From contig CBDAFS010000027.1 of the NCBI GenBank assembly GCA_965195285.1, forward strand, positions 1 through 28,315: a stretch of DNA of 28,315 bases, written 5' to 3'. Below are positions 8,947 to 26,555 of this stretch, piece by piece. Within the stretch, counting starts at the first letter, position 1. Every line of letters starts with the position of its first letter. This DNA is from an uncultured Aminicenantes bacterium. Its GTDB lineage: Bacteria; Acidobacteriota; Aminicenantia; UBA2199. A model generated the notes under the pieces. It was not told the origin of the DNA. It ran no database searches and worked only from the letters and a program-made list of their open reading frames with translations. The position numbers and the translations under genes were made by a program.

Positions 8947-9013
8947 CATGCATCCATGCATACGTTCATTCATGCATTCATATATCTATTTCTACGTTTC
9001 TACGCACCGAGTA
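8947..9013. repeat. Site A3 preceded by a degenerate 8-mer tandem array
   Basis: CATGCATC CATGCATA CGTTCATT CATGCATT CATATATC TATTTCTA CGTTTCTA CGCACCGAGTA; the last 27 bp are 24/27 identical to A1. Confidence 0.8.
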
Positions 9014-9023
9014 TTTTTTTGAA

Positions 9024-9103
9024 GAAAAAATTATTACCAAAAAAGGTTTTAAAGTCAACCGCTTAATAAAATTTTGATTTTAACGAATTTACAAAATTAG
9101 AAA
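9024..9103 (-). promoter_or_regulatory. Orphan promoter-like segment homologous to the dch promoter region
   Basis: Minus strand TTGACT (9058-9053), 17 nt, AATAAT (9035-9030); aligns by eye with 3582-3663, including the upstream operator-like segment. Confidence 0.55.
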
Positions 9104-9177
9104 TTTAATTCTAATTATTCCATCTCAATTTGAATAATTTCAAGTTACTTATCTCAAGCATCTCTGAAATAAATAAT

Positions 9178-11826
9178 TCAATTTATTAATTCATCTGATT
9201 TACTTAAACATTTTTTGGATTTTTTTATATTCCCGACTTTTTTATATGCTTCTCCCAGATTTTTCCAGTATTCAGCACAATCATTTTTTAAATTTATTGC
9301 CATTTTAAAATGCTCTATAGCTTTCTTGAATTCACTTTTTTCGTAATAAATAATTCCAATTCTATTCCAAGCGTCATGGTCTTTTTCGTTTATTTTAATA
9401 ACTTTTGTGAAGCATCTTTCTCCTTCATTATATGATTTCATATTGTGATAGACGCTGCCTAATGTAAACCATGCTTCCAAAAAATTTTCTTTTTGTTCAA
9501 TTGCTTTTTCACAATATTTAATTGCCTCAAGATACTTTTTGTTTATGTTATAAATATTTGCAATATTATTTAATATTTCTGGAGATTCTCCGTTTAACCT
9601 AATAACTTTTTGATAGCAATTTAACGCTCTTTTTAGTTCGTTTGTTTGAAAATAAATATCTCCCAAGTATCTCCATGCAGAATAATCTTTATTATTTATT
9701 TTAAGTGCTTTTTTTAATGTTAATATTGACTCCTCTACATATCCATGTCTGCAGAATTCAAGACCATTACGAAGTAAGTCTTTATAATTTTGTGTCAGTT
9801 TTATTGCTTTTATAAAACTTTTTTTTGCTTCAATTTTGTCTCCTTTTTTATCATACATAATACCTCTTCTATACCATGTTTCATTACATTTTGGATCAAT
9901 TTCAATCAACTGATTTATTACATTCACAGCTTTATCAATTTCATTAATAGATGAGAATAGAGAAAATTTATATTTTAATAACTCTGCATTCGATGGATCT
10001 AGTTCTGATGCAATTTCGAATGCTTTCAGAGATGGAATATTGTTTTTCATTCTTAGATTTATTATGCCGATTCTCAACCAAGACATGAAATCTTTTGGAT
10101 CTTGTTTTGTGATTTGGGTAAATATTTTTTGTGATTCCTTATACTTTCTTAATTGGAATAAAGTTTCAGCTTTCAGCTTAGCAGTATAGATATTATCTTT
10201 TTTTGATATATCGGCTTTTAAAAGGAAACTTAATGCTTCTTTATATTGATCTAGTTCGAAATAAGCTTTTCCTATCCATAAATAAATTTCATGGTCATCA
10301 TTAACAAGTTCTAGTGCTTGTTTCAAAATATCAATTGCTTTATTGTATTGATTCAATTTAAGTTTAACTCTACCATTTATTTTTAAAATTTTAAAAGATT
10401 TTGGTTCAATCAACAGCGATTTATCAAAAGCGAATGAAGCTTCTGAATAATTTTTCATTTTTTCAAGTAATGAACCTTTATTGAACCATGCTTCATACCG
10501 ATTAGAGTCAATTTTTATTGCCGTTTCGTATGCTTCAAGAGCTGCATCATTTTTTTTAATATCTTCTAATACTGTGCCTTTGTTTACCCAAGCATCATAA
10601 TAATCATTTTTTATTAAGATAGCTTTATTATATGCATTCAACTCTTTTTCAATGAGTCCTTGTTTTCCAAGAGCAAATCCTTTTTCAAGCCAAGCTTCAT
10701 GATTAGAAGGATCAAATTTGATTATTTGATTAAAAATTTCTATTGCATCTTTTATATTTCCAAGATTTCCTAAAACTTTACCCTTATTTAATAATAATTC
10801 AATGTCATCTTTTTTTAATGATAGAGTTTTGTTTAGGGTAATTAATGATTTTTTGTATTTTCCGATATAAGCCAGAAATAAACTAAATTCTTTTAAAATC
10901 TCAAAATCATAGGGAAAGATTTTTAGTACTTCAGTGTAAGATTGCTCAATTTCATTATTATTTTTTTGGAGTCGTAATAAATTGATTTTATTTTTCCAAG
11001 CAATCTTGTTGTTTGGATTCAATTCTAGTGCTCTGTTAAATGCATATATTGAATCTGAAACATCTTCTTTTTGAATTAATAGGAATCCTTTTATATTCAA
11101 TATCTCTGAATCATTTGGGTAAAAATCTTCTAAATCACTAACAATTTTCATTGCTTCTTCATTATTATTTAATACAGATAAAGTGAGTGATTTTAATATA
11201 AGAGCATCTTTATGATTTTTGTTTATATATAGTATTGAATTTAAAATTGATAAAATAGATTCATTATCTTTTTTTCCGAGTGCAAGAAAAGCTTTTCCCA
11301 TTAAGGCTTTAATTAGATTGTCTTCTTCTGTGAAAGTATCTTCACTTTGAATTTTAGATAATGATTTTCCGCCCATTCTAGTTGAAAGTAGATCTATGTT
11401 TTCATTAAATTTTTTAAATAAATCGTACTGTTGCCACATTGACAGTCTATTGTCTCCCCTATCACAATCTTCTAATCGTACAGGGATAATAATAAATTCA
11501 TTTTCAGGTTGATTATTTGCGATCTCAACAGATAAAGTCAATTCTTCATCAAGCATGGTTGATGTTTCCAAATTACTGATTTTATTTAGTGAGTTATTGC
11601 TTATACAAAAAATGAAAAACTTAGTTCTATAAATTGCTTTTTTTATTTGAGGTTTCCATCTACCAGGTCGCATAGATTTCTTGGAGAACCAAACATTCAA
11701 GCGTCTTTTTGTCAGCTCAGTGAATATTTTTTCTACAAATTTTTCATCTTCATCTGCATAACTCAGAAACACTAAATCTCGATCTGGAATTGAGTGCCTT
11801 CCCATTTTTGCTTTCAATTTTACCAT
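9178..11826 (-). CDS. TIR domain + long TPR array protein (putative immune sensor/effector)
   Basis: N-terminal TIR_2 pattern VFLSYADED...LNVWF...IKKAI..KFFIFCIS...EEL...IIPVRLEDC, followed by many 34-aa TPRs (AWxNKG..L....A...Y..A); very AT-rich. Confidence 0.88.
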   Translation of the reverse strand: MVKLKAKMGRHSIPDRDLVFLSYADEDEKFVEKIFTELTKRRLNVWFSKKSMRPGRWKPQIKKAIYRTKFFIFCISNNSLNKISNLETSTMLDEELTLSVEIANNQPENEFIIIPVRLEDCDRGDNRLSMWQQYDLFKKFNENIDLLSTRMGGKSLSKIQSEDTFTEEDNLIKALMGKAFLALGKKDNESILSILNSILYINKNHKDALILKSLTLSVLNNNEEAMKIVSDLEDFYPNDSEILNIKGFLLIQKEDVSDSIYAFNRALELNPNNKIAWKNKINLLRLQKNNNEIEQSYTEVLKIFPYDFEILKEFSLFLAYIGKYKKSLITLNKTLSLKKDDIELLLNKGKVLGNLGNIKDAIEIFNQIIKFDPSNHEAWLEKGFALGKQGLIEKELNAYNKAILIKNDYYDAWVNKGTVLEDIKKNDAALEAYETAIKIDSNRYEAWFNKGSLLEKMKNYSEASFAFDKSLLIEPKSFKILKINGRVKLKLNQYNKAIDILKQALELVNDDHEIYLWIGKAYFELDQYKEALSFLLKADISKKDNIYTAKLKAETLFQLRKYKESQKIFTQITKQDPKDFMSWLRIGIINLRMKNNIPSLKAFEIASELDPSNAELLKYKFSLFSSINEIDKAVNVINQLIEIDPKCNETWYRRGIMYDKKGDKIEAKKSFIKAIKLTQNYKDLLRNGLEFCRHGYVEESILTLKKALKINNKDYSAWRYLGDIYFQTNELKRALNCYQKVIRLNGESPEILNNIANIYNINKKYLEAIKYCEKAIEQKENFLEAWFTLGSVYHNMKSYNEGERCFTKVIKINEKDHDAWNRIGIIYYEKSEFKKAIEHFKMAINLKNDCAEYWKNLGEAYKKVGNIKKSKKCLSKSDELIN

Positions 11827-12163
11827 GTTGAGTCGCCAACTTCAATTAGACGGGAATAGGGATATTTGAATTGAAACTCTGAAAAAGAAATTTGAATAAA
11901 AATATCGATACAATATAATCATTTCTCGATTCAAGTAATAATAATATGTGTATTGCTATAGATTGGATTAATAATGCATCATAGTATAAACTAATTTAAA
12001 TTAACCAGAACGACATCGTTAACAATAAATGTTTTTTGATATCAGAATGAGAGAAAATAATTGATCTTTGTCATACAAAAAATGTAATATTCATTTTGTT
12101 TGAAAATGTATTTGCTATATGTTATTTTTAAAATTAAATAATATTAATTAAATAAGGGGAAAT

Positions 12164-12712
12164 ATGGAAAATAAAAATGATTCAATAATTTTTTGTGGTA
12201 ATTGTGGTCAAAAAGTATCATTAAAATCAAATTTTTGCTGGAAATGTGGCTCTAAAATAAATAGGGTAGATGAACAAAAAGAAATTGATAAGAAATTAGA
12301 TAATAATATTTCGAAAAATTTGGGAACAATAAAAATTTCAGAAGAAAAGGACACAAAACCGGAATTAAAAATCTATAATAAGAAAAAGAGTGATAATATT
12401 ATTTTTAAAATAGTAATTCTAATAATATTAACAATAATTTTGGGATTAGTTGTTAATTCTCCTGATTTATCAGTAATAACAAATATATTCAAAGGAAAAT
12501 TTATTGGAAAGGTTGTTAATATTACATTTCCTACTGAAAAGAGTGGGTGGTCAGGATTAGTAAAATCATATAAAGAGAATAAATATATAGATATTCAATA
12601 TATCAATAAATTTAATAAAACCCTTGGTAAAGAAAGCAGGCTGATTTTAAAAAATAGAAAATATTCAATAACAATAATAGCTGATAGCGTCAATGAATAC
12701 TTTTACAGATAA
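12164..12712 (+). CDS. Double zinc-ribbon, single-TM membrane protein
   Basis: FCGNCG...FCWKCG, then hydrophobic IVILIILTIILGLVV; AAGGGG RBS. Confidence 0.75.
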   Translation: MENKNDSIIFCGNCGQKVSLKSNFCWKCGSKINRVDEQKEIDKKLDNNISKNLGTIKISEEKDTKPELKIYNKKKSDNIIFKIVILIILTIILGLVVNSPDLSVITNIFKGKFIGKVVNITFPTEKSGWSGLVKSYKENKYIDIQYINKFNKTLGKESRLILKNRKYSITIIADSVNEYFYR

Positions 12713-12832: not shown

Positions 12833-14431
12833 CTAATTGGAAATGGTTGTTTTGAGGAGTTGGGTGTCGCTGATGGTGGTGTAGAGATCATTGACATCCA
12901 CCACAACATTGTATTCCCCGTTTTTTAAGGCACTGATATTTAAATTAATATTTATATGAATATTTTTCCGGGTGGCCTTCATAATTTTTTTCTGGTCAAA
13001 AACAGATTTTCCCTGCTGGTCTTCAATTCGAATATGGATACGGAGTATTCCCCCGTCTTCTTTATCCATGTAGAAATCCGAAACATTAAACATCAGTTTG
13101 CCTTTTATCAGCCTCAGATTTTCAATATTAATGGGTTTTCCCTTGACCTGTTTTTCCTCAAGGTACTGGCCGAGGTAACCGGTTCTGAGGTTGGGGCTGT
13201 AAATCAATTTGTATTTGGGGTTTTTCAGTTTCACTTTAATTCTCCCCACCTTATCCGGATTGGCCGGGGCATAGGTTAAAATATAATAAATGTCTTCAGC
13301 CTCGACGATACGATCCAGAGCTTTTTCGAGTTTATTGGAAACCACCAGTTTTCCGCCGGTTCGCTTGGTGATGGCGCGCAGGCTGTTTTCCAGCTCACTG
13401 GCAACTTCCCGGTACTCGACATCCTGCAGCAGGGTAAAGAATGTGCTTTTCATGAACACCGAGTGAAAAGTGGTATCCACATTGTGAAATATTTTTGCCA
13501 CCTCGTCCGAGGGAAAATCCTTGGCCACACTGAGTTCCCTTTCAATTTCACTCAGTAGGCGAAATATGAGCCGTGAAAAAGTGATTAATTCCGGATTATC
13601 ACTTGTCTGCCAGGCTCCGATCAGCCGCCTGATCCGTCTCATGCTTTCACTGTTGATGAGAATATCGGGAAATAGCTCGAACTGGTAGAAATTGATAACC
13701 CACTTTTCTTTTTTGATTCTCTTCAAGAACCGGGCAAAATTGTAATACTTGTTGATGTCCGGAATCAGGTATTTCTTTTTATAATTTCTCCAGATCTCCA
13801 GAAATTTCTCCAGATAATTGTAAATTATAAAATGCAGTTCCATACCCCCCCGTTCCGTATTGATCAGTTTCAATTCGAATTTATGTTTTTCCACTTCCCT
13901 TTCAACTGCTTTTAAATGCATGAGCAATTTATTTCGTGCGTTCCGGGATACCTCTTGGAGGATTTTAGCCACTTTGGCTTTCACAGAAGGCTTATCATTC
14001 AGGAATTTAAAATAAGTGCTTCGGTCATTGGCAAAAACCAGGAGTTGATCAGCATCAGTCAAAATGGTATCGAATATATGATCCAGGCCTTTTTTTATAT
14101 CATCGTTGTAGTGGGTGAAACGGAATACCAGGACAAAGAAACGGGGTTCACGGGTCATGACCTGTTCGGCATTCAATTTCAACTCCTGGGTTTTGATCTT
14201 TTTTCGTTTCAAAATAAATCCGTGAATATCCTGTTGTTTTCCCCTTTCAAACAGTTTGAAATCGTTTTTGGTCAGGTTGTCCACCGGTTTACCCCGGTAG
14301 ACCACCCGCACCGGCACCTCGACATTGACCACCCTCACGGTTTCCTGAAGAATCTCGTCTTCCTGCTGGCCACACAGAAATCCACCCCATAGAAATGTAA
14401 TCATGAGCCATAAGCAGAATGAATTTTTCAA
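12833..14431 (-). CDS. Secreted VWA-related (Acidobacterial VWFA-like) domain protein
   Basis: Signal peptide; ETVRVVNVEVPVRV...PVDNLTKNDFKLFE N-terminal signature; L..ITKRTGG and YYILTYAP...IKVKLK C-terminal signature; TTG start with GGGAG RBS. Confidence 0.7.
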   Translation of the reverse strand: MKNSFCLWLMITFLWGGFLCGQQEDEILQETVRVVNVEVPVRVVYRGKPVDNLTKNDFKLFERGKQQDIHGFILKRKKIKTQELKLNAEQVMTREPRFFVLVFRFTHYNDDIKKGLDHIFDTILTDADQLLVFANDRSTYFKFLNDKPSVKAKVAKILQEVSRNARNKLLMHLKAVEREVEKHKFELKLINTERGGMELHFIIYNYLEKFLEIWRNYKKKYLIPDINKYYNFARFLKRIKKEKWVINFYQFELFPDILINSESMRRIRRLIGAWQTSDNPELITFSRLIFRLLSEIERELSVAKDFPSDEVAKIFHNVDTTFHSVFMKSTFFTLLQDVEYREVASELENSLRAITKRTGGKLVVSNKLEKALDRIVEAEDIYYILTYAPANPDKVGRIKVKLKNPKYKLIYSPNLRTGYLGQYLEEKQVKGKPINIENLRLIKGKLMFNVSDFYMDKEDGGILRIHIRIEDQQGKSVFDQKKIMKATRKNIHININLNISALKNGEYNVVVDVNDLYTTISDTQLLKTTISN

Positions 14432-14549
14432 TATGGTTCTCCCATTTTTTTTATAACCAATTCATTAAAGATATACGAAAATAAAAAAAAAAACGGAAAA
14501 ATAGATCTAAAAAAAAAATCGTTTAATGTTCAACCGGGGTGAATGATTA

Positions 14550-15692
14550 CTATTTTTCTTCTTTGGGTTTGGGCAGAACCGATTCGATGAGATCGCTATC
14601 AAAGGTCTTGGCCTGGGAGAGCAATTGACGGTATTTGATAAAATCAATGGTTCTCTGTCCGGTTATTTTCTGGGTATTGAAGGCGTTAAAACCGATATCC
14701 GCTTCCATGTTCATGTTGGCACCCAGCCAGTAGATTTGACTGCTCTTCTGCATATCCCAATAAAATTTCTTTTTGACCCGGATGCTTTCAATGGTGTTCA
14801 TCAGGCAGAGGAAGGTGGTGTTGGTCAGGGTCCAGTTCATTTTATCGACAAAGGCATCCATCTGGCTCCAATCGGTCTGGAGGCCCTTCAATTCGTCCTT
14901 GGCGGCCTTAAATGCCTCTCCTTTTTTAAACTCCCCGTAAACAATTTCGCCGTTTTCCACATACCGCTCGGTGACCACCCTGGGATCACGCACCCATTCA
15001 CCCTGGCTGTTCTTTTTGATGGGAATGGCCTTGGTGATCAATCCCATTCGCTCCATCTTGGCCGCACTCCACAACTCATTGGCGGTGGCCTGCCACATGG
15101 CCTGTTCCATGCTCAGGTTCCAGGGCAGGAAATCGGTTGATCCTCCGGTTGGGGTGGAACCGTGACGGGTTCCGGCCTGGCCGAATGAGGCCGTATCAGC
15201 TGCTACGGTAAAATCACAGGCCTGGCCAATTTCCTGACCACCGGCGATTCTCATTCCGTTGCAACGGCAAATAACCGGCTTGCGCGACTTTAAAATACCG
15301 TCGATCATTCCGGAAAAGAGATCCATGTACTGGGTATACTCCAGGGGTCTCCGGGAATAGTACTCGGCATACTCCTTGGTGTTTCCTCCCGTGCAAAATG
15401 CCCGGTCTCCGGCGGCTGTGAATACAATGGTCATCACATCTCTTTCCATGGATGCCTTATGCATTCCGGCGGTCACACCCTTGATCATCTGGGTTGTGTA
15501 AGAGTTAAGCTGGCCCGGATTGTTGAGGGTGATCCAGGCCGAATACAATCCATCAACCGTTTCTCCGGTTTCCGGATTGATCAGTGGTTTCTTCTCGTAA
15601 ACCGTACAGGGGGATTCTGTACCAAAGTGCTCATCACCGTATATCTGATGATCCTTGATTTCGTTGTCACGTGGTAACCAGTCTAATGCCAT
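14550..15692 (-). CDS. oah: 6-oxocyclohex-1-ene-1-carbonyl-CoA hydrolase (ring-opening, BamA/Oah)
   Basis: AWITLNNPGQLNSYTT, AFCTGGNTKEYAEYY and NGMRIAGGQEIG motifs diagnostic of Oah/BamA; 380 aa; AAGGAGG RBS. Confidence 0.93.
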   Translation of the reverse strand: MALDWLPRDNEIKDHQIYGDEHFGTESPCTVYEKKPLINPETGETVDGLYSAWITLNNPGQLNSYTTQMIKGVTAGMHKASMERDVMTIVFTAAGDRAFCTGGNTKEYAEYYSRRPLEYTQYMDLFSGMIDGILKSRKPVICRCNGMRIAGGQEIGQACDFTVAADTASFGQAGTRHGSTPTGGSTDFLPWNLSMEQAMWQATANELWSAAKMERMGLITKAIPIKKNSQGEWVRDPRVVTERYVENGEIVYGEFKKGEAFKAAKDELKGLQTDWSQMDAFVDKMNWTLTNTTFLCLMNTIESIRVKKKFYWDMQKSSQIYWLGANMNMEADIGFNAFNTQKITGQRTIDFIKYRQLLSQAKTFDSDLIESVLPKPKEEK

Positions 15693-15729
15693 GATGGTCC
15701 TCCTTTACATTCATTTTAATTTTTATTCT

Positions 15730-15759
15730 ATTTTAATCTGAAAAAGAATTCAAGGTCAA
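15730..15759 (-). promoter_or_regulatory. Possible promoter of oah
   Basis: Minus strand TTGACC (15759-15754), 18 nt, TAAAAT (15735-15730). Confidence 0.4.
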
Positions 15760-15772
15760 AAAAATCAGTCCC

Positions 15773-17200
15773 TCATTTTCTTGAGAATCTATTTTTTTTG
15801 GCGGGTTCCGGTGGTTTATTACCGGTTGCGGTTTTTAAAAAAGCCTCGACTTCGGGTATGCCTCCCTGAAAAATCAAATAACCGTTAAAGGGTTCCCTTT
15901 CGGTTATCTCGCTGCATATGGGAGTGAGCATGATTTCCTTGACCCTGTCCAGGTCATCGGTCTGACCCAGTGCCCATGCCAGCTTGATGTAGGCCACTTC
16001 CGGAAGCATGTTTTCTGTGGGTATCACACCGATTTTTTGCATGTCCCTGCCGGTTTCGTACACAAACATGTGAACAAATCCCCAGAGGGTCTGAACGGTC
16101 ATGTATATGGCCACTCCCGCCTTGCTGGCCCTTTCGATAGCCGGATACAGGGGTTTGTTGACATGACCCAGGCCAGTGCCGGCTATAACGATCCCGCGAT
16201 AACCGTTTTCAACCAGCGAGTCAATCATATCGGGATGCATGTTGGGATAATAATAGAGCAAAGTCACCCGTTCTTCAAAATAAGGATAGATATCAACCCG
16301 GCGGTCCTGACGCCGGCGGTTGTAGTCATGTCTCAGGAGAGTGATGTTATCCCTTTTGACCGTGGCCAGGGGAATATCTCCGATGGTCCGGAAGGTGGAC
16401 CGGTAAGAAGAGTGCATTTTACGAACCCGGGTTCCCCGGTGAAGGAGGGCATAATCATCCGAAGTGGTGCCGAACATACAGACCATGACCTCGGCAATAT
16501 CGGATTGGCTGGCAGTGGTAGTGGCATGGATCAAATTTAGAGCCGCATCCGAGGAGGGCCGGTCTGATGATCGCTGGGATCCAACCATAACAATGGGAAC
16601 CGGTGAATTCTGTATCATGAAGGCCAGTGCCGAAGCGGTATGATGCATGGTATCGGTCCCATGTCCGATAACAATGCCGTCAATACCCTGCCTGATCTCT
16701 TCCCCGATGGCGATGGCCAGGGTTTTGTATTGGTCAGGACCCATATTTTCACTGAACACGGAAAATAATTTTTCAGTAGTCAGATTGCAGATATCAGCCA
16801 GTTCCGGTACGGCACCGTATAGTTCTCCGGGTGAAAATGCCGGAATCACGGCCCCGGTACGGTAATCCAGCCTGGAGGCAATGGTGCCGCCGGTACCAAA
16901 AAGTTTGATGTTTGGCTTATCTTCGGATATGGGAAATTCCTTTTCCGGAATCTTGTAATGGGCCTCTTTGTAGCCCAATTCCTTGATATGGGTAATGGTT
17001 TGGATATCGATACCCACGTTGTATCCATTGCCCAGTTTCAGGACCAGGTGGATATCATCATCATACTCGGATCGGGGCAGAATGATCCCATGGAATCCTC
17101 CACGCGTGGTTTCGATGGAAACCTCGCTCCAGACCCGGACTTTATATTTCTTTAGTATATCCAATCCTCTGCCCTTGTATCCTTTGTAGAGATCGTTCAT
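15773..17200 (-). CDS. gatD: Glu-tRNA(Gln) amidotransferase subunit D
   Basis: GatD N-terminal domain (LKLGNGYNVGI) plus asparaginase-like motifs GTGGTIASRLDYRTGAV, HGTDTM, GSQRSSDRPSSDA and RKMHSS; 4-nt overlap with gatE. Confidence 0.93.
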   Translation of the reverse strand: MNDLYKGYKGRGLDILKKYKVRVWSEVSIETTRGGFHGIILPRSEYDDDIHLVLKLGNGYNVGIDIQTITHIKELGYKEAHYKIPEKEFPISEDKPNIKLFGTGGTIASRLDYRTGAVIPAFSPGELYGAVPELADICNLTTEKLFSVFSENMGPDQYKTLAIAIGEEIRQGIDGIVIGHGTDTMHHTASALAFMIQNSPVPIVMVGSQRSSDRPSSDAALNLIHATTTASQSDIAEVMVCMFGTTSDDYALLHRGTRVRKMHSSYRSTFRTIGDIPLATVKRDNITLLRHDYNRRRQDRRVDIYPYFEERVTLLYYYPNMHPDMIDSLVENGYRGIVIAGTGLGHVNKPLYPAIERASKAGVAIYMTVQTLWGFVHMFVYETGRDMQKIGVIPTENMLPEVAYIKLAWALGQTDDLDRVKEIMLTPICSEITEREPFNGYLIFQGGIPEVEAFLKTATGNKPPEPAKKNRFSRK

Positions 17201-19140
17201 TTTCGACCCCCGTTGATATGTTTTCTGAGTGTATTCAATTCAATATTGCCCAAAGCCACCGGTTTCAGCTGGCCCATCAGCCAGCGTTCCCGGGCGCCCG
17301 GAGCTTTTGATGTTCTAATATTGTTGAATTTGACATTCAAGGCCGGCAATATGGAGAGGATTTCTTTCTCTGATTTGTTGCGATATTTCAGGATTTTCAG
17401 GACCGAATCAAAATCGGATTCGGGATGCTGGTAAGCAATGGGGAGCATACTTTTTATGATGTCTGTTTTAAGCTTTTTTTTCCGGATAAATTTAAAAAGC
17501 TCGTAGACTTTTTGATAATCTATGGAGGCATTCCCAACCTGCTGGCCCTCAATATGTTTCAGGGTATGGCCGATCAGGGTGCCGACCAGGAGTGGGTTTT
17601 CCTGGAAATCAGTGATGATACCGGCCAGCAGGGGGAAGAGGTTTTTGCTCAGAATATAGGTGAAGGTAGTGGCCGGAATTTTCCATTTTATCATCTGGTC
17701 GATATGGGCAGTGACCTCGGAAGGAAGTTGCTTTTCGATATCCCGGATCATCCGGTCATCGATGGGGATAGGAGAGGAATCGGTGTCCGGGTACATGCGG
17801 TCGGGTCCGGGCAATACCCGCTCAAAAATCGTGGTCCCGTTTTTAAGGGCTTTGCGGGTTTCGTTGGGAACTCCCTGCAGGGCCAGCCGACAGCGCTCAT
17901 CGATAGTTTCCAGGGCAGTCGGCATGTCAGTTTCTGGTCCCCACAGGATGATCTGGGCATCGTTTTCACCACTCTTCAGGGTTTTTCTGACCCGGGCCCA
18001 GTCTTTGGCCTCCAGCCGGGATGCCAGTGCCTCCGAATGGGTCATACTAGGCCTATTCAAGCAGGCAATAACGGTTAAGCGGTCATGAATTTCATCGGCA
18101 AATATTTTTCCGGGCTGGGTGAAAAAGCTGAGAATCCCCTTGAACAAGGGCAGGTTCACCCCGATAAACCGGTTGTTTGGCTCGGAATTTAATTTCAGGT
18201 CCGGTAATGCACTGGATTTCAATTTCCATTTATTGATGTCCGGGATTCGTTTTTTCAGAATTTTACGGATTTCCAACAGTGATTTCTGGCGGAAGGCCTC
18301 ATTGTGGGTGAGTTCGGGAATGGAACGCAGATGGGCCACGCCTTTGATTTCAACCCGGGTACCACCGTTAATGCTGACATTGACATCCTGACGGGCTGCA
18401 CCGATACCGGTTCTGACATGATTGGTACTTCGGCACAAAAAACGAATGTACTGCCCGGCTTCGGCGGCTTCATCCGGTGTTTTCATGTCGGGATGGGTTA
18501 CGGTTTCCACCAGGGGCATGCCCAGGCGGTCGGTCATGTATACCCGGTCGTGCCGGATATCCGAGACCTCGCGGCAGGAATCCTCTTCCACACTCAACTG
18601 GATGATACGGATAATTTTTTCTCTGAGCGGGATTTCACCTTCGATTCCGATAATACCGGTGCGTTGAAACCCGGTGGGGATACTTCCGTCCAGATACTGC
18701 TTGCGAGTGATATGCAGCTCACCCACGATACTGGTCTTGAGCAGCAGGGCAATTTCAATGGCAATCTCCAGTGCTTCACGATTCAATTTAAAGGGGGGTG
18801 TGTCATCAATTTCATAGGTGCAGGCGGTTCGATGCTTGATCCGGTAAAAGATGTTCTTTTTGGTTTTGAATTCCATCAAGGCGGTTCCATCGTATTCTCC
18901 CAGTTCACTCAGGGTGGGGCGCATATGCCGAATGATTTCGGCATCATAATCATCGCTCTGTTGATATATTCCGGCCGGACAACGGCAGAAGAGTTTTTTT
19001 TTGGTTTTCAGTTGCTGGTGAATTTCAAGCCCGCAGCGATAGCCCAGAGACTCATAGATTTTCCGGTCCGCTTTTCTACGCTCCACATACCCGACTGTTT
19101 TTCGGGTTTTTTCAAGATTCTGCTTCGGATCAAATGTCAT
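17197..19140 (-). CDS. gatE: Glu-tRNA(Gln) amidotransferase subunit E
   Basis: CGLEIHQQL, RPTLSELGEYD, RKQYLDGSIPTGFQRT, RVEIKGV, GVPNETRKA and PGPDRMYPDTD; 647 aa with the internal insertion typical of GatE rather than GatB. Confidence 0.93.
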   Translation of the reverse strand: MTFDPKQNLEKTRKTVGYVERRKADRKIYESLGYRCGLEIHQQLKTKKKLFCRCPAGIYQQSDDYDAEIIRHMRPTLSELGEYDGTALMEFKTKKNIFYRIKHRTACTYEIDDTPPFKLNREALEIAIEIALLLKTSIVGELHITRKQYLDGSIPTGFQRTGIIGIEGEIPLREKIIRIIQLSVEEDSCREVSDIRHDRVYMTDRLGMPLVETVTHPDMKTPDEAAEAGQYIRFLCRSTNHVRTGIGAARQDVNVSINGGTRVEIKGVAHLRSIPELTHNEAFRQKSLLEIRKILKKRIPDINKWKLKSSALPDLKLNSEPNNRFIGVNLPLFKGILSFFTQPGKIFADEIHDRLTVIACLNRPSMTHSEALASRLEAKDWARVRKTLKSGENDAQIILWGPETDMPTALETIDERCRLALQGVPNETRKALKNGTTIFERVLPGPDRMYPDTDSSPIPIDDRMIRDIEKQLPSEVTAHIDQMIKWKIPATTFTYILSKNLFPLLAGIITDFQENPLLVGTLIGHTLKHIEGQQVGNASIDYQKVYELFKFIRKKKLKTDIIKSMLPIAYQHPESDFDSVLKILKYRNKSEKEILSILPALNVKFNNIRTSKAPGARERWLMGQLKPVALGNIELNTLRKHINGGRK

Positions 19141-19356
19141 GGGTTAACTGTTTTCCTTTACCGATGGGTATCGGGTGTAAGCCAATCTGTTTTGTATCAT
19201 ATTGCCTCATTGAAGTCAACTTAAATAAATTACCTTTTTATTTAAAAAGAATTAGAAAATCGGTTGACATTTGAATGGTAATATTGACAATCTTTATTTT
19301 TTACCGCAAAATCAATTTATATATTCTTGTTGATATCAAATCTAGAGGTGAGTGAA

Positions 19357-20460
19357 ATGTCAGAAGAAATTCGAGTCAGGGCAGAACCACTCAAGTCGTT
19401 CTGCATCCGCATTTTTCAAAAGTTGAATGTGACTGCCGAGGATGCCGCAGTAGTTGCCGATAACCTGGTTGCTGCTGACCTGAGGGGAATCGCCTCTCAT
19501 GGTGTGGCCCGTTTGAGGCGTTATGTCAAGGGGATACAGACCGGAATCATACGGTCCCGGGCCGAAGCCCGGGTGGTGATGGAAACCGCGGCCACTGCCC
19601 TCCTGGATGGAGGCGGTGGGCTGGGGCAGCCCATATCCAACCGGGCCATGCACATGGCTATTCAAAAGGCCCGGGAAGCCGGCGCCGGATTTGTCAATGT
19701 ACGGAATTCCAATCACTACGGTATTGCCGGGTATTATGCCATGATGGCGCTGGAATACGACATGATCGGGGTTTCCATGACCAATTCCGGTGTACTGGTG
19801 GTTCCCACCTTTGGCCGCCATTCGATGCTGGGAACCAACCCGATTAGTCTGGCAGCCCCGGCCGGACAGGAACGCCCTTTTGTGTTGGATATGGCCACAA
19901 GCACCGTGCCCCGTGGAAAACTGGAAGTGTACAACCGTCAGCAGAAACTGTTGCCAATGGGGTGGGCGACCGATGAAACCGGAGATCCCACTGACGATGC
20001 CAGCCGGGTTTTGAATAATCTGGTTGAATCGAAAGGGGGTGGCCTGTTGCCCCTGGGAGGCTCCGGCGAATTATTCAGTGGACATAAAGGTTATGGCCTG
20101 GCGCTGATGGTGGATATTTTGTCCGGTGTTCTTTCCGGAGCCGGTTATGCGGATAATATTTATACCAAAGAGCCGTCTGGCCAGCCCAAGCCGGCCAATG
20201 TCGGACATTTTTTTGGTGCTCTGCGCGTAGATGGTTTCAGGCCCATTGATGATTTTAAGCAAACCATGGATGACCTCATCAACCGGCTCCGTAATGTTCC
20301 CAAAGCCAGCGGTCAGGACCGGGTCTATATTCACGGTGAGAAGGAATTTGAAATTGAAGAAGATCGGAAAGTCAATGGGGTTATTCTGCACCCCAAAGTA
20401 GAACAGGACCTGAAGTCCCTGGCCCGTGAACTGGAAGAGGATTACGATCTGATCTCATAA
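19357..20460 (+). CDS. Ldh_2 family NAD(P)-dependent oxidoreductase (malate/L-lactate/L-sulfolactate dehydrogenase-like)
   Basis: ADLRGIASHG, RNSNHYG, GTNPI, LDMATS and HKGYGL motifs; ATG 19357 preceded by GAGGTG. Confidence 0.88.
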   Translation: MSEEIRVRAEPLKSFCIRIFQKLNVTAEDAAVVADNLVAADLRGIASHGVARLRRYVKGIQTGIIRSRAEARVVMETAATALLDGGGGLGQPISNRAMHMAIQKAREAGAGFVNVRNSNHYGIAGYYAMMALEYDMIGVSMTNSGVLVVPTFGRHSMLGTNPISLAAPAGQERPFVLDMATSTVPRGKLEVYNRQQKLLPMGWATDETGDPTDDASRVLNNLVESKGGGLLPLGGSGELFSGHKGYGLALMVDILSGVLSGAGYADNIYTKEPSGQPKPANVGHFFGALRVDGFRPIDDFKQTMDDLINRLRNVPKASGQDRVYIHGEKEFEIEEDRKVNGVILHPKVEQDLKSLARELEEDYDLIS

Positions 20461-20466
20461 ATTGTC

Positions 20467-20495
20467 TTGATATTTTGGTCATTTTTATTTAGAAT
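20467..20495 (+). promoter_or_regulatory. Putative sigma70 promoter of the acyl-CoA synthetase pair
   Basis: TTGATA (20467-20472), 17 nt, TAGAAT (20490-20495). Confidence 0.55.
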
Positions 20496-20558
20496 CAAAT
20501 CATATCAACGGTAGCTCCCGGGCCTGAAGGCTCAGAGTGATCAGGCTGTTAGGAGGAA

Positions 20559-22685
20559 ATGACCATGCCAGACTTAGATGCATTGTTTAAACCCAGGAAT
20601 ATTGCCATTATCGGTGCATCCAACCGTCCCCTGACCATCGGACACCGGATCATGACAAATTTGAATAGATATGGTTTCAAAGGTCAGGTGTTCCCGGTGA
20701 ATCCCAAGGGAGAGCCCATTCTCGATATTCCTTCTCATAAATCCATTTTGGATATTGGCCCCGAGGTGGATCTGGTTCATATAATCGTACGCAATAACCT
20801 GGTGGCTCAGACCCTTGAGGATTGTGCGACCAGAGGAGTTAAGGTTGCCATTGTCAATACATCCGGTTTCAAGGAGACCGGCCCCGAGGGTGCTGAGCTG
20901 GAACGGGAACTGGTGGCGATCGGAAAACGAACCGGACTGCGCCTGTTCGGTCCCAACTGCCAGGGGGTCATGAATTCCGATCCCCAGGTCAGCCTGTATT
21001 CGAATTTTACCTTTGCCGAAATGATTCCCGGACATGTGTCCATGGTTGCCCAGGGCGGGGGTGTGGCCGAGGTGATCAACAATTATTTTGGCATGAACCG
21101 GGTGGGACAGCGAATGTATGCCTCCAATGGCAATGCCTGTGATATTTCGGTTCCTGAAATCATTGAATACTATGGACAGGATGAACAAACCCATGTCATT
21201 GTTCTGCATGCCGAAAGTTTTCCCGATCCCCGGGAATTTCTGGAGCGGGTGGCCCCGGTAGCAGAGAAAAAACCGGTTCTGGCCTTGAAGAGCGGTGTCA
21301 CGGCCGAGGGAGCCAGGGCGGTCTCCTCCCATACCGGAGGTCTGATGGAAGCGGATACGGTCACCGACGTTCTGTTTGATAAATGCGGGGTTTTACGGTT
21401 TGCCAGCCTTCTGGAACTGTGTGAAACCGCTCAGGCTTTTGCTACCCAGAACGTCCCCAAAGGGAAGCACGTGGGAATGGTCACCAATGCCGGTTCACCG
21501 GCCATTATTGTCACCGATGAGGTGGTGAAAGCGGGACTGGAAGTCCCGGATTTAAGCCCTGCATCAAAAGTTTTTTTACAGGATAAACTCCAGTCCATTG
21601 CCAGTATTGCCAATCCCATTGATATGATGGCCACGGCAGCCGGGATCGAGTACCGCGCATCTCTGGATGCCCTGGTTGGGGATCCGGGTATCGATTCCAT
21701 TGTGGTCTGTTTCATGACTCCCTTTTTTGTTGATACCCTTCAGATTGCAGAGGCCATTGAACAGGTCGCTGCTTCAGCCGAGAAGACCTTGATTGCTGTG
21801 GCCATGACCAACCCGGATGAAAAACCGGAATGGCAGGAAACGGTTGAGCGGGTTCGACAGGCCGGAGTCCCGGTCTACTATTTCCCGGAAAGTGCGGCCA
21901 GGGTATTGGTCAATATGAACCGCTACCGGAAACTCCGGGATCGGCCCCGATTGAAGCCGGCAGAAATCCAGGTTGAAGTGGACCAGGCAAATCGGTTATT
22001 GAAGGAGGCAAAACCGGGACCGGAGGGTTTCCTGGCTCCCGGAGATGCCAGTGCATTATTGACGATCTATGGTATTCCCCTGGTCCGGGAAAAACGCTCT
22101 GAAAATTGGGATGGATTAAGGACAGTTGCTGCTGAGATCGGTTATCCGGTAGTGCTCAAAGCAGAAGCCCCTTCGCTGATTCACAAAACCGACGCCGGAG
22201 CCGTGATATTGAATATCAATGATGAATCCGAGTTAAAGAATGCCTATGAGGGTTTAAATAGGAAAGTCGGAAACCATCCGGAATTGGCTTTTCTACTCCA
22301 GTCCCAGTTGGATCCGGGGCTGGAGATCATTATCGGTGGAAGCCGGGCACCGGGACTGGGCGCCATGATCATGTTCGGCCTGGGCGGCATTCATGTGGAG
22401 GTATTCAAGGATGTCATGTTCAAATTAGGACCTCTCAATCGGTCAGAGGCTCTGGAAATGCTGGAAGGTATCCGGGCCTCAGCGCTGCTGGACGGGGTCA
22501 GGGGCCAGCCTGGAATTGATAAGATGAGTGTGGCGGATATCATGCTGCGGATATCGGAATTGCTGGAAAATCATCCGGAAATTGTTGAACTTGATTTGAA
22601 TCCGGTTATGGCTTATCCAGCCGGGAAACCGGTGGCTGTGGTGGATTTCCGAATCAAGATATGTCAATCCGAGAGCGGGGGATGA
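20559..22685 (+). CDS. ADP-forming acetate/acyl-CoA ligase, fused alpha-beta
   Basis: CoA-binding IAIIGAS, GPNCQG, phospho-His SSHTG, NPIDM, ATP-grasp GYPVVLK...HKTDAG and ELDLNP; no GNAT domain. Confidence 0.88.
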   Translation: MTMPDLDALFKPRNIAIIGASNRPLTIGHRIMTNLNRYGFKGQVFPVNPKGEPILDIPSHKSILDIGPEVDLVHIIVRNNLVAQTLEDCATRGVKVAIVNTSGFKETGPEGAELERELVAIGKRTGLRLFGPNCQGVMNSDPQVSLYSNFTFAEMIPGHVSMVAQGGGVAEVINNYFGMNRVGQRMYASNGNACDISVPEIIEYYGQDEQTHVIVLHAESFPDPREFLERVAPVAEKKPVLALKSGVTAEGARAVSSHTGGLMEADTVTDVLFDKCGVLRFASLLELCETAQAFATQNVPKGKHVGMVTNAGSPAIIVTDEVVKAGLEVPDLSPASKVFLQDKLQSIASIANPIDMMATAAGIEYRASLDALVGDPGIDSIVVCFMTPFFVDTLQIAEAIEQVAASAEKTLIAVAMTNPDEKPEWQETVERVRQAGVPVYYFPESAARVLVNMNRYRKLRDRPRLKPAEIQVEVDQANRLLKEAKPGPEGFLAPGDASALLTIYGIPLVREKRSENWDGLRTVAAEIGYPVVLKAEAPSLIHKTDAGAVILNINDESELKNAYEGLNRKVGNHPELAFLLQSQLDPGLEIIIGGSRAPGLGAMIMFGLGGIHVEVFKDVMFKLGPLNRSEALEMLEGIRASALLDGVRGQPGIDKMSVADIMLRISELLENHPEIVELDLNPVMAYPAGKPVAVVDFRIKICQSESGG

Positions 22686-22686
22686 A

Positions 22687-24234
22687 ATGACCAACTGGCT
22701 GAACCTGGGTGAAATGTTGAAACTGAATGCCCATAAGTATCCGCAAACCGTCTGCTTGATGGATGCGGAACGGTCATTTACTTTTCCGGAAACCAACCGC
22801 AGAGTCTGCCAGTTAGCCAATGCCCTGCTTTCACTCGGTCTTGTCAAGGGGGATATCATTTCAGTGTTGCTGGAAAATTGCCTTGAATTTGCTGAAATAT
22901 ATCTGGCTGCTGCGAAAACCGGCATGGTGGTGAATCCCATCCATTTTAGGCTGGTGGGTTCGGAAATGGTTGAAATTGCCAATCATGCCGATGCCAAAGC
23001 CCTGATTGTTCATGATGAGTTCTGTCCGGTTATTGAAGATATCCGCCCCCGCTTACATATTGATCAAAATCGCTATGTGGTGGTGGGACAATCCCGGGAT
23101 CAATTTATTTCCTATGAATCTTTTCTGGACAGTGGAAAGCCCAATGAACCGGGAATCAAGGTGAAACCCGAGGAAACCTGGATACTGTTGTATACCTCCG
23201 GGACCACCGGCAGGCCCAAGGGCGTGGTCCGTTCTCACGAATCCTACATTGCCTTTTATTTGATCAATGCCATTGATTTTGATTTCCGGCCCCACGACCG
23301 GGTGCTTAATGTCATGCCTCTCTGCCATGTAAACACCACCTTTTTTACCTTTACCTTCACCTATATCGGGGGTTCCACCTATGTGCACCCGGCCCGTGGA
23401 TTTGATGCCCGGGAAGTTTTAGGCATCATTGAAAAGGCCCGGATCAATTTCATTTCTTTGATCCCAACCCACTATGCCCTCATACTGGATGTGCCCCCGG
23501 AGCAGCGGAACCGGGTGGATGTGTCATCCATTAAAAAATTATTGTGTTCGTCTGCCCCGGCCCGGGTGGAGCAGAAAAAGGCCATCATGAAATATTTCAG
23601 GGGAGTAGAACTCTATGAAGCCTACGGTTCCACCGAAGCCGGAATTGTCACCACCAGCTTTCCCCGGGAGCAGCTCACCAAACCGGGTTCAATCGGGAGG
23701 GAAAACCTGGGTACGGACTTTGTTAAGCTTCTGGATGAAAACAAAAAACCGGTGAAAAGAGGAGAAATCGGTGAACTATACAGCCGGGGGCCCATGATGT
23801 TTGACGGTTATTACAAGGATCCGGAAAAGACATCGGACAGCTTTGTCGGTGAATACTTTTCAGCCGGTGATATGGCCTATCAGGACAGCGACGGATATTT
23901 TTACCTGGTTGATCGCAAGAACAACATGATCATAACCGGAGGAGAAAATGTGTTTCCCTCTGAAATAGAAAAAATCATCTGCCAACACCCGGCCGTGTTT
24001 GAGGCAGCCGTGATCGGGGTACCCGATAACAAGTGGGGGGAAGCGGCTAAAGCGGTGGTGATATTGAAAAAAAATGTAAGTTGTTCTGAAAAGGAGATTA
24101 TCGATTTTTGCCGGGATAAGCTGGCTGGATTCAAGCGGCCCAAGACCGTTGATTTTATCGATTCCGAAGAGATGCCCCGTACGGGTTCGGGAAAAATCCT
24201 TCACCGGGTGCTCCGGGAACGGTTTTCAAAATAA
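22687..24234 (+). CDS. AMP-forming acyl-CoA synthetase (class I adenylate-forming), substrate unknown
   Basis: YTSGTTGRPKG, YGSTE, GDMAY, DRKNNMIITGGENV and PRTGSGKI. Confidence 0.88.
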   Translation: MTNWLNLGEMLKLNAHKYPQTVCLMDAERSFTFPETNRRVCQLANALLSLGLVKGDIISVLLENCLEFAEIYLAAAKTGMVVNPIHFRLVGSEMVEIANHADAKALIVHDEFCPVIEDIRPRLHIDQNRYVVVGQSRDQFISYESFLDSGKPNEPGIKVKPEETWILLYTSGTTGRPKGVVRSHESYIAFYLINAIDFDFRPHDRVLNVMPLCHVNTTFFTFTFTYIGGSTYVHPARGFDAREVLGIIEKARINFISLIPTHYALILDVPPEQRNRVDVSSIKKLLCSSAPARVEQKKAIMKYFRGVELYEAYGSTEAGIVTTSFPREQLTKPGSIGRENLGTDFVKLLDENKKPVKRGEIGELYSRGPMMFDGYYKDPEKTSDSFVGEYFSAGDMAYQDSDGYFYLVDRKNNMIITGGENVFPSEIEKIICQHPAVFEAAVIGVPDNKWGEAAKAVVILKKNVSCSEKEIIDFCRDKLAGFKRPKTVDFIDSEEMPRTGSGKILHRVLRERFSK

Positions 24235-24246
24235 ATTTAACTCAGA

Positions 24247-24281
24247 AGGGAAGGAGGGTGTGGGAAGAGGGAAGGAGGGTG
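24247..24281 (+). repeat. Purine-rich 7-mer array with a canonical G-quadruplex motif
   Basis: AGGGAAG GAGGGTG TGGGAAG AGGGAAG GAGGGTG; five GGG runs with 3-5-nt loops. Confidence 0.6.
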
Positions 24282-25256
24282 ACGGTGCTTGACAATTTGA
24301 CAATTTCATTTTTCCCTCAGTCTCAATTTTGTCCTCTTATACAACTGTCCGATCGAATGAAGTTTCAAATCACTGAACAAATCCATTTTTATAATTTCAG
24401 TATATTTTAAGCCTCCCCTCTCCCTGAGATTAAAAAGCAACTCACCTCTAAGTCTCTTTCCAAAATGAGTTGTTGTATCAATATTTTCGATATTGATTTT
24501 ATACTTTTTCTCAAATTCCATATATATTTTTTTAACCGGTTCAAAATAGAGATCATCAATCCTTTTCCCTTCCATACTTTCTCTATTATTTCTGCGGTCA
24601 AATTTATTTTTTGCTTCTGAAATATAACCTTTCCCCCCAATTATTTTTCCAACTCTCGTCTCAATAACCGGAAGTGATTCTAAATTAGAACTGTTAACCA
24701 TATTAATTAAATTATTTTCATCCCGAAAAAGATCTTCAACATATGATCTGTCTATAATTTCACAATCATTATACTTATTATAATAGTAAGATGCACTCGA
24801 CCATTCATACTCATGGAAATTACTTAATATCCCTGCGCGAACAGGATTATTTAAAACATAGGCTATCGATAAAAGAAGATATGTATCATCCTGAATTAAC
24901 ATAGATTTAAATCGTCCCTGGAATACATATCCCTTTCCACCATGTTCTGATCTGTATAAACTTCCGAAATTCCCATTCAATTGTTTAAGAAAATCTGACA
25001 TCCTACCGGAACTGTTTTCAAGGATCAAATGATAGTGGTTATCCATCAGACAATAAGCAAATATTCTTATTTTCAACTCTTGAGAATATAACCCTAATAA
25101 ACTCAGAAATTTTTCTTTATCTTTTCTCTCCTTAAAGATCGGTTTCCCATCATATCCCCGGTTCATAACATGGTGATAGGCTCCCCGGTATGTTACCCTT
25201 GCTCGGCGCATAAATAATCTTTATAACAAAAATGTCAAAATGTCAAGCACCGTCAC
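24279..25256 (-). mobile_element. RAYT/Y1 transposase unit bounded by 24-bp inverted repeats
   Basis: Left GTGACGGTGCTTGACAATTTGACA (24279-24302); right TGTCAAAATGTCAAGCACCGTCAC (25233-25256); 1 mismatch; no target-site duplication seen. Confidence 0.8.
24306..25211 (-). CDS. REP-associated tyrosine transposase (RAYT-like HUH/Y1) with C-terminal helical/HTH extension
   Basis: YHHVMNRG, AYCLMDNHYHL (HUH), FQGRFKS, YVLNNPVRAG (catalytic Tyr) and YEWSS; 301 aa. Confidence 0.9.
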   Translation of the reverse strand: MRRARVTYRGAYHHVMNRGYDGKPIFKERKDKEKFLSLLGLYSQELKIRIFAYCLMDNHYHLILENSSGRMSDFLKQLNGNFGSLYRSEHGGKGYVFQGRFKSMLIQDDTYLLLSIAYVLNNPVRAGILSNFHEYEWSSASYYYNKYNDCEIIDRSYVEDLFRDENNLINMVNSSNLESLPVIETRVGKIIGGKGYISEAKNKFDRRNNRESMEGKRIDDLYFEPVKKIYMEFEKKYKINIENIDTTTHFGKRLRGELLFNLRERGGLKYTEIIKMDLFSDLKLHSIGQLYKRTKLRLREK

Positions 25257-25868: not shown

Positions 25869-25869
25869 T

Positions 25870-26463: not shown

Positions 26464-26469
26464 CAGAGA

Positions 26470-26502: not shown

Positions 26503-26555
26503 AAATGATAAATTTATGAACAAATCATTTCCATTCCTTAAATCGAGATATTTCT

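Follow-up and report, generated by a model that had tools for sequence, protein, structure and literature searches.

An intact gatE-gatD gene pair for a GatDE-type tRNA amidotransferase in an uncultured Aminicenantes bacterium

We analysed a stretch of 28,315 nucleotides (the window) from an uncultured Aminicenantes bacterium of sediment origin (NCBI GenBank assembly GCA_965195285.1, contig CBDAFS010000027.1). The window comprises contig C27 in full, one of 62 contigs in a 3.28-Mb genome bin (94.9% complete, 1.7% contaminated). It encodes GatE and GatD (the query proteins in the following), i.e., the two subunits of the Glu-tRNA(Gln) amidotransferase GatDE, which a 2008 review calls an 'archaeal signature protein' confined to archaea (PMC2330236). 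We find the gene pair intact and resident in its host family. Based on sequence comparison, we consider it probable, if with considerable reserve, that it encodes a working Glu-tRNA(Gln) amidotransferase beside glutaminyl-tRNA synthetase (GlnRS), in the place of the bacterial amidotransferase GatCAB.

The gene gatE precedes gatD on the same strand, and the overlap of the gatE stop with the gatD start suggests translational coupling of the two (Table 1). The gatE product passes the GatE models NF003107 (471.5 bits, cut-off 456) and TIGR00134 (404.2 bits, cut-off 319.55); the gatD product passes the GatD models NF003217 (521.4 bits, cut-off 310) and TIGR02153 (516.3 bits, cut-off 324). Within the latter product, Pfam places GatD_N (PF18195, E 5.7e-14) ahead of Asparaginase and Asparaginase_C. 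GatB models score the gatE product far below their cut-offs (TIGR00133 126 bits vs. 314.8; best GatB model 135.8 bits vs. 338), such that a clustering of the proteins with GatB is not what we observe. With regard to expression, the intergenic region upstream of gatE presumably holds both the promoter and the ribosome-binding site of the pair. Here, AAAGGAAAA is located 11 nt before the gatE ATG, and a consensus scan found no minus-strand promoter-like site passing its rule upstream of gatE. Short contigs from one metatranscriptome run fall on the stretch, two of them within gatE (18648-18830, 18976-19166); since neither strand nor transcription can be read from them and DNA was possibly present, nothing is inferred from them.

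The residues of the known chemistry are in place. Mutation of the Mg2+ ligands His15, Glu157 and Glu184 kills the GatE of M. thermautotrophicus (PMC2330236). These ligands align to H41, E185 and E212 of the query GatE, and all three are invariant across 30 diverse GatE sequences. The query keeps all 48 invariant columns of that 30-sequence alignment, which holds by construction given that the alignment defining them includes the query. For GatD, the motifs GTGGTIASR (102-110), HGTDTM (180-185) and RVRKMH (258-263) align to P. abyssi GatD and represent the regions of the nucleophilic Thr, the Thr-Asp and the Lys; this match is at the motif level. The best solved-structure matches of both proteins are the two archaeal enzymes: P. 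abyssi GatD (1zq1_A) is found with a phmmer E-value of 2e-118 and archaeal GatE (2d6f_C) with 2.8e-89, the latter collinear (query residues 29-640, archaeal residues 3-613). Bacterial loci retain the GatD motifs in 72/72 cases. Likewise, gatE followed by gatD on one strand is found in all 72 loci that have both genes at full length, with a gap below 210 bp in 70 of them and inserts of 2.3 kb and 1.3 kb in the other two (loci L131, from genome G009, and L059). That is, the claim of the original prediction that full-length gatE-gatD genes with intact motifs are present is confirmed by two open reading frames (ORFs) that pass the respective models, share an ATGA and align in their catalytic residues.

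The gene pair is widespread in bacteria. A homologue search yielded at least 8000 matches; the best 120 (60-97% identity) are bacterial wherever named, with labels from Acidobacteria, Aminicenantes, Omnitrophota, Calditrichaeota and Chloroflexia. A scan with one genome per species found at least 594 relatives, of which the best 80 are all bacterial and cover many phyla, Bacteroidales included; cultured holders among these 80 are Perlabentimonas gracilis, Marinifilum flexuosum DSM 21950 and Labilibaculum sp. K2S. Within the host family, GatE is above cut-off in 20/25 genomes, and in 2/2 genomes of a second family of the class. The remaining five host-family genomes have completeness values of 70-88%; GatE fragments occur in one of these. 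The pair was originally presented as an exceptional archaeal signature in a bacterium; this does not hold, since it is common and already annotated in bacteria. The large bacterial GatDE clade, of which the window is an unexceptional representative, is annotated in databases yet little discussed: among the titles and abstracts listed for GatDE papers from 2014 on (not including subscription journals), none is on bacterial GatDE.

We computed three GatB-rooted trees from representatives of 50%-identity clusters and labelled sequences, i.e., a FastTree tree (122 rows), a quick IQ-TREE tree (LG+G4, with the Shimodaira-Hasegawa-like approximate likelihood ratio test, SH-aLRT, as only support; 74 rows chosen from the 122 plus 12 named loci) and a further quick tree (69 rows, 32 labelled). 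Labels were taken from homologue searches and from the species scan. All 21 GatE with a bacterial label group with the query in a single clade (SH-aLRT 100). This clade includes one protein from a 5.16-Mb contig labelled 'Thermoplasmata archaeon', a label that we doubt. Its sister is Asgard-dominated (SH-aLRT 98-99), with Heimdallarchaeota, Thorarchaeota and 'Asgard group' labels as well as one Bathyarchaeia-labelled sequence, and the pair of bacterial and Asgard branches is nested among further archaeal lineages. These topologies are to be read with a long outgroup branch (1.5-1.7), weak deeper nodes (5-87), a simple model and many unlabelled tips in mind. Given that all bacterial-labelled GatE form one clade with an Asgard-dominated sister, one old transfer of GatDE from archaea to bacteria is plausible, and the old inter-domain transfer proposed at the outset fits the trees to that extent.

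Within the bacterial clade, the query is part of a tight sub-branch on a long stem (0.45-0.83 substitutions per site across trees, 0.45-0.55 in GatE trees). Labels in this sub-branch are Aminicenantes, Acidobacteria, Zixibacteria, WOR-3, Cloacimonas, Bacteroidales (two cultured strains), Lentisphaeria, Calditrichaeota, Omnitrophota and Chloroflexia. In a combined GatD+GatE tree of 34 operons, 9/10 host-family copies group in one clade (SH-aLRT 96) together with the unlabelled row L042, while the copy of G015 branches elsewhere, beside an Aminicenantes-labelled metagenome-assembled genome (MAG). The nine copies include the 'Omnitrophota'-labelled L040, which we take as family genome G019 based on identical glnS coordinates and score. 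Both the GatE counts within the family and the grouping of most family copies speak for a long residence of gatDE in the host family.

Next to this sub-branch, the bacterial clade holds another GatDE type, found in Coatesbacteria, Planctomycetota, Rhodothermaceae and the second family of the host class. It shares the operon and a GatD that is 71-72% identical to the query, while its GatE is only 43-48% identical and its C-terminal part is unrelated at the level of BLAST (at most 31 bits).

Sequence and model assign to the query GatE a cradle (catalytic) domain (residues ~29-300), an insertion resembling that of aspartyl-tRNA synthetase (AspRS; ~302-426) and a helical C-terminal part (~462-642) that would bind tRNA. 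The 28-residue N-terminal extension is particular to the sub-branch. An AlphaFold model built on a 51-sequence alignment has a mean predicted local distance difference test (pLDDT) score of 81.2. Its best match is archaeal GatE, with a Foldseek E-value of 1.6e-38 and, for 2d6f_D, a VIA-align Z of 29.4 at a root mean square deviation (rmsd) of 6.6 Å over 478 residues. Model residues 305-423 align with 109 residues of the AspRS insertion domain from P. aeruginosa (Z 10.9, rmsd 2.8 Å) and E. coli (Z 10.7, rmsd 2.7 Å; both VIA-align). According to the model, the query thus possesses the AspRS-like insertion domain that distinguishes GatE from GatB. Searching the query GatE with Pfam gave no match to PF02938 (GAD) at E 0.001 or better and none to PF02637 or the YqeY models. 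Here, the query differs from the Asgard GatE labelled Heimdallarchaeota or Thorarchaeota, its nearest archaeal relatives in the trees, for which the Pfam domains GAD, GatB_Yqey and YqeY are still annotated.

The divergence of GatE is concentrated in its C-terminal part. Identity of the query to Asgard GatE is 46-58% over the cradle domain and falls to 17-23% in the C-terminal region. Inside the sub-branch, the cradle domain (residues 29-300) shows 68-84% identity; the last 177 residues reach 26-50% even within the host family, 10-23% to all sequences outside the sub-branch and 10-19% to the other bacterial type. Across phyla, GatD is 67-80% identical vs. 51-63% for GatE. Comparing the last 185 residues by BLAST, sub-branch members match each other with 92-184 bits, other bacterial types with at most 31 bits and archaeal tails with at most 57 bits, while the tails of other bacterial GatE types still match archaeal tails with 40-85 bits. 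At the same time, the tail is conserved inside the sub-branch. Among 51 sub-branch GatE, the mean column identity is 65%, and invariant and near-invariant positions reach into the C-terminal part; N500, W620, G623 and G631 of the tail are invariant and many further positions nearly so. In the model, residues 462-642 are all-helical with high pLDDT. Full-length GatB chains align to the model as far as residue 647, 2d6f_D only to residue 569. Since the divergence is local to the tail, the tail is conserved inside the sub-branch and its helical fold is predicted with confidence, the tRNA-binding end of GatE thus appears to have been rebuilt on the stem of the sub-branch and retained since.

On the tRNA side, archaeal GatDE is described as reading A1-U72 and the D-loop, bacterial GatCAB as reading U1-A72 (PMC2330236). 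The genome has two tRNA(Gln) genes, one for UUG (contig C49) and one for CUG (contig C50), both with U1-A72, G2-C71, G3-C70 and G73. The tRNA(Asn) also has U1-A72 and, like tRNA(Gln), a small D-loop; larger D-loops are seen in tRNA(Glu) and tRNA(Asp), whose first pairs are G1-U72 and G1-C72, respectively. That is, the tRNA set follows the pattern read by bacterial amidotransferases and, given U1-A72 in both tRNA(Gln) genes, has not shifted to the archaeal form. For this genome, this refutes the co-adaptation of tRNA(Gln) identity elements that had been put forward for the locus. If anything adapted, sequence comparison points to the enzyme, i.e., to the remodelled C-terminal tRNA-binding part of GatE.

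With regard to the routes to Gln-tRNA(Gln), we took the inventory that had been suggested along with the original prediction. The genome encodes GlnRS (749 bits, cut-off 425.8), asparaginyl-tRNA synthetase (AsnRS; 480 bits) and a single glutamyl-tRNA synthetase (GluRS), which is of bacterial type. GatCAB was not found: gatA has no match and the sole gatB-like match is gatE itself (97 bits) in this 94.9% complete genome. The genes gltX and glnS (contig C24:58933-62086) are arranged head to tail on the same strand, 137 bp apart, and this pairing recurs in, e.g., G001, G004, G015 and G017; as judged from the arrangement, they may be co-transcribed in the host family.

We also compared the occurrence of GatE, GatB and GlnRS among genomes. 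The genomes counted are kin and partly overlap between samples, such that the numbers serve as a description of the pattern and not as a statistical test. Of the 41 relatives, 27 belong to families f1 and f3. In this group, GatE passes its cut-off in 22 genomes and GlnRS is present in 24, while GatB passes in none. The remaining 14 genomes, from five further families of the class (f2 and f4-f7; G025, G027-G035, G037-G040), all have GatB and neither GatE nor GlnRS, and each has two GluRS-like genes. In four of them, two full GluRS were confirmed. Two of the GluRS pairs examined show Arg in one copy and Asn or Glu in the other at the equivalent of Arg358, which recalls the GluRS1/GluRS2 split of Helicobacter. 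In a phylum sample of 151 genomes, GatE is present in 32, namely in 20/40 GatB-negative vs. 12/111 GatB-positive genomes. The 119 GatE-negative genomes, the only ones among which two unpublished genomes (G063, G086) were counted, have GlnRS in 78 and GatB in 99 cases. The relatives and the phylum sample agree in that GatE is found more often in genomes lacking GatCAB. In other phyla, reached via the loci of the species scan, 30 GatE-bearing genomes have GlnRS in 27 and GatB in 8 cases. For 2/5 genomes with the other bacterial GatE type, neither GlnRS nor GatB was found (completeness not given); in those two, GatDE may be the sole Gln-tRNA route.

Taken by homology, GatE would bind Glu-tRNA(Gln) and, using ATP and Mg2+ at the ligands H41, E185 and E212, phosphorylate the glutamyl side chain. 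GatD would hydrolyse Gln or Asn and release ammonia, which would reach the intermediate via the GatD-GatE tunnel and amidate it to Gln-tRNA(Gln). Since a bacterial GlnRS is encoded beside gltX, GatDE would not be the only route. It could rather act as a parallel or back-up route that converts any Glu-tRNA(Gln) stemming from the single GluRS and would take the place that GatCAB has in sister lineages. Given that the substrate tRNA has the bacterial U1-A72, recognition must presumably differ from that of archaeal GatDE, which fits the remodelled C-terminal part of GatE.

The archaeal enzymes of M. thermautotrophicus (PDB 2D6F, with tRNA(Gln)) and P. abyssi (PDB 1ZQ1) share with the query the two subunits, the Mg ligands, the asparaginase-type motifs, GatD_N and the AspRS-like insertion. 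In contrast, the query host is a bacterium with GlnRS and U1-A72 in tRNA(Gln), GatDE is not its sole Gln-tRNA route, the genes are joined in a gatE-gatD operon, and GatE has the N-terminal extension and about 180 C-terminal residues that are barely alignable. Compared with GatCAB, whose GatB is the paralogue of GatE, the cradle fold is the same (Z about 25 to GatB chains), as is the place in sister lineages; the glutaminase differs, being the amidase-type GatA there and the asparaginase-type GatD here, and GatB has no insertion domain. In Deinococcus and Thermus, GatCAB supplies asparagine. This explanation is not directly transferable, because the query genome has asnA, asnB-type genes and two glutamine synthetases. 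As regards retention as such, Thermus, Deinococcus and Bdellovibrio keep GatCAB beside GlnRS and AsnRS (PMC4206432) and are thus a precedent for an amidotransferase retained beside both direct synthetases.

The reading as a probable working Glu-tRNA(Gln) amidotransferase is based on the intact chemistry, the conservation and the complementary distribution. Several observations weigh against it. First, the genome encodes GlnRS and AsnRS along with two glutamine synthetases, asnA and three asnB-type genes, such that nothing known requires the GatDE route. This redundancy is general: the 32 GatE-positive genomes of the phylum sample divide into 20 with GlnRS but without GatB, 8 with both and 4 with GatB but without GlnRS, while none has neither, and in the cross-phylum sample 25/25 genomes with the query's GatE type have GlnRS. 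Second, the A1-U72 pair that archaeal GatDE requires is lacking in the host tRNA(Gln), and the last 185 residues of the query GatE match archaeal GatE with at most 43 bits and other bacterial GatE types with at most 30 bits (BLAST). Third, the literature searched, which did not extend to subscription journals, yielded no activity data for a bacterial GatDE. Finally, the route would depend on a GluRS that mischarges tRNA(Gln). At the residue corresponding to T. thermophilus Arg358, the effect of which is reported to be phylum-specific (PMC3927822), the GluRS of the genome carries Arg. We rejected this position as a predictor of discrimination because, within the phylum, Arg is also found in 6/7 single GluRS of GatCAB-only genomes without GlnRS, which must mischarge; this calibration left out wrong-frame ORFs of GC-rich genomes (e.g., G017, G056, G073, G075a, G082, G088, G041).

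A farther-reaching reading, which we regard as a tentative possibility, is that the GatDE of the sub-branch has been re-specialised, is no longer what makes Gln-tRNA(Gln) in the cell and has persisted beside GlnRS over a very long period; the tail would have been rebuilt on the stem for a bacterial tRNA, for a new substrate or for activity under particular conditions, e.g., amino-acid or nitrogen stress. The bacterial clade in its entirety would go back to a single ancient transfer from an Asgard-like archaeal lineage. The re-specialisation would concern all groups holding the query's GatDE type, i.e., Aminicenantes and other Acidobacteriota, Bacteroidales, Zixibacteria, Cloacimonadota, WOR-3 and others.

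Rather unlikely, in our view, although the main alternative to a working Glu-tRNA(Gln) amidotransferase, is a retargeted enzyme in the sense that the chemistry is kept while the substrate is another (Asp-tRNA(Asn) or a special tRNA) or the role is a conditional, stress or back-up one. Retargeting would explain why GatDE is retained beside GlnRS. The constant redundancy of GatE described above agrees with it, and so do the higher frequency of GatE where GatCAB is missing, the long stem of the sub-branch and the U1-A72 that tRNA(Asn) shares with tRNA(Gln). It also agrees with a GatD that stays conserved both across phyla and towards the other type, while GatE drops to 43-46% and its last 177 residues to the values given above. 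On the other hand, AsnRS is above cut-off in 146/151 genomes of the phylum sample and in 31/32 GatE-positive ones, and the query genome has Asn synthetases, such that the conversion of Asp-tRNA(Asn) would be equally unneeded. Furthermore, the AspRS-like insertion domain is kept, and reported modelling suggests a clash of this domain with AspRS (PMC2330236). The residues of the GatE catalytic pocket are unchanged, and conserved neighbours suggest no alternative substrate.

Two more roles were tried and rejected. As an Asp-tRNA(Asn) replacement for GatCAB, GatDE is left without any genome needing it, given the AsnRS counts just listed. For Gln or Asn biosynthesis, the genome already has its own set of synthetase genes.

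We further evaluated whether gatDE belongs to this genome at all, or whether the contig is archaeal, chimeric or mis-binned or the genes arrived only recently on a GC-rich block; this we consider very improbable. Composition gives it some room. The guanine-cytosine (GC) content of gatDE (49.3%) fits the neighbouring genes (48.6-53.3%) and exceeds the genome mean of 42.2%, corresponding to the 96th percentile of 3111 genome windows. The entire 11.3-kb stretch from 13001 to 24300 likewise has a higher GC content than the genome, and the correlation of its tetranucleotide profile with that of the remaining genome is 0.86, i.e., below the 5th percentile of 0.90 among 150 random stretches of equal size. 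Of the original statement that the composition is like that of neighbouring genes, the comparison with the neighbours thus stands, while the block as a whole deviates from the genome. In addition, contigs of other samples stop at both borders of the block (~12.8-24.3 kb), and the neighbours of gatDE are not conserved beyond the genus. Against an import, housekeeping aminoacyl-tRNA synthetase genes are above the mean GC content as well (45-48%), the nearest named homologues are bacterial, and the family counts and the grouping of the family copies given above argue for residence. An independent MAG of the same genus has oah-gatD-gatE-ldh2 in the same order with 92-98% amino-acid identity, and two runs of another study assembled the block independently, each in one piece (11.5 kb, covering window 12836-24222, and 11.6 kb, covering 12836-24245); one of these contigs shows 10 differences to the window over 14559-24222 (~9.7 kb). 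The genome also has a bacterial 16S rRNA gene (1533 bits, RF00177) and a tmRNA gene. Together with the Rhs core domains and the 6A-MBL defence system in the window, these support the bacterial context noted originally. The evidence as a whole speaks against an archaeal or chimeric contig.

The same near-identical contig shows 153 differing positions over 12836-14370, after which 188 bases are replaced by 199 other letters. This abrupt change of divergence, in or just after the VWA-like gene at 12833-14431, is probably a recombination border. Since contigs of other samples stop at both block borders, the low-GC flanks, which hold a defence island at one end and Rhs tips at the other, look variable between strains.

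That GatDE serves the neighbouring aromatic-acid/CoA-ester pathway (e.g., by making amides) instead of acting on tRNA is hardly credible, even though oah lies 80 bp downstream of gatD on the same strand (TIGR03200 472.9 bits, cut-off 464.45) and two CoA ligases and the Ldh_2-family dehydrogenase are located divergently on the other side, because this neighbourhood is confined to the genus (11 other relatives examined keep gatE-gatD and none of these neighbours), a promoter-like site separates gatD from oah, and GatE keeps the insertion, helical and tail parts that make up its tRNA-binding architecture.

Table 1. Features of the window with their coordinates and the basis of each assignment.
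Feature	Position	Strand	Description	Basis
gatE	17197..19140	minus	647 aa, kinase/amidotransferase subunit	NCBIfam models and aligned catalytic residues
gatD	15773..17200	minus	475 aa, asparaginase-type glutaminase subunit with GatD N-terminal domain	NCBIfam and Pfam
ATGA overlap	17197..17200	minus	gatE stop / gatD start	sequence read directly
Intergenic region upstream of gatE	19141..19326	minus	shared with the divergent Ldh_2-family gene	sequence read
Low-GC block of three genes	4854-8813		33-35% GC; unknown 239-aa ORF, MBL-fold protein, fused E2/E1/JAB protein	
TIR-TPR protein	9178-11826	minus	882 aa; N-terminal TIR followed by a long TPR array	PF13676, E 4.6e-19
Anaerobic benzoyl-CoA-type ring degradation genes	2-3570 and 14550-15692			NCBIfam/Pfam
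REP-associated tyrosine transposase-like gene	24306-25211	minus		PF01797; NF047646 62.6 bits, under cut-off 80
Two Rhs-associated core ORFs	25290-28290		short unrelated C-terminal ends (217 and 319 aa); DNA of 29-32% GC	

Further features of the window are included in Table 1. In the low-GC block, the MBL-fold protein matches NF058524 ('6A-MBL', 364 bits, cut-off 220) and the E2/E1/JAB protein NF058523 ('6A-MBL cap2_3', 504 bits, cut-off 320), which makes the block a candidate for a complete 6A-MBL anti-phage system. The TIR-TPR gene adjoins this defence block and lies in DNA of 25-28% GC. The region 9000-12219 gets almost no depth from contigs of three other runs, which shows nothing either way; the same applies to further uncovered parts of the window, such as 24456-25099. 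The benzoyl-CoA-type genes, which would be of interest for the metabolism of the lineage, are oah, a dienoyl-CoA-hydratase-like crotonase, a had-like Zn-dehydrogenase and a gene of the aldehyde:ferredoxin-oxidoreductase family that is cut at the contig end; only oah passes its equivalog cut-off, and narrowly so. At the transposase-like gene, contigs of two other samples match the window up to 24245 and continue with different sequence, i.e., this spot may differ between strains. In the family, three other genera (loci L121, L122, L126) have related transposase-like genes (28-47% identity) directly beside their gatE-gatD pair. Between and after the Rhs ORFs, we find a gene for a CPBP-family membrane protease and a small unknown ORF; judged by sequence, the Rhs ORFs look like spare toxin tips with possible immunity genes.

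The view of GatDE as archaea-only, which is still found in reviews, underlies models for the co-evolution of tRNA(Gln) identity with the two routes to Gln-tRNA. The data presented here place beside it a large bacterial GatDE clade, cultured strains included, that faces a tRNA(Gln) with U1-A72, and for the query's type a GlnRS is present in all genomes sampled across phyla. This raises the question of what role a second, tRNA-dependent route has in cells that bear GlnRS, and of how the tRNA reading of GatE changed. The value for follow-up lies in the clade-wide coexistence with GlnRS in combination with the apparently rebuilt GatE tail.

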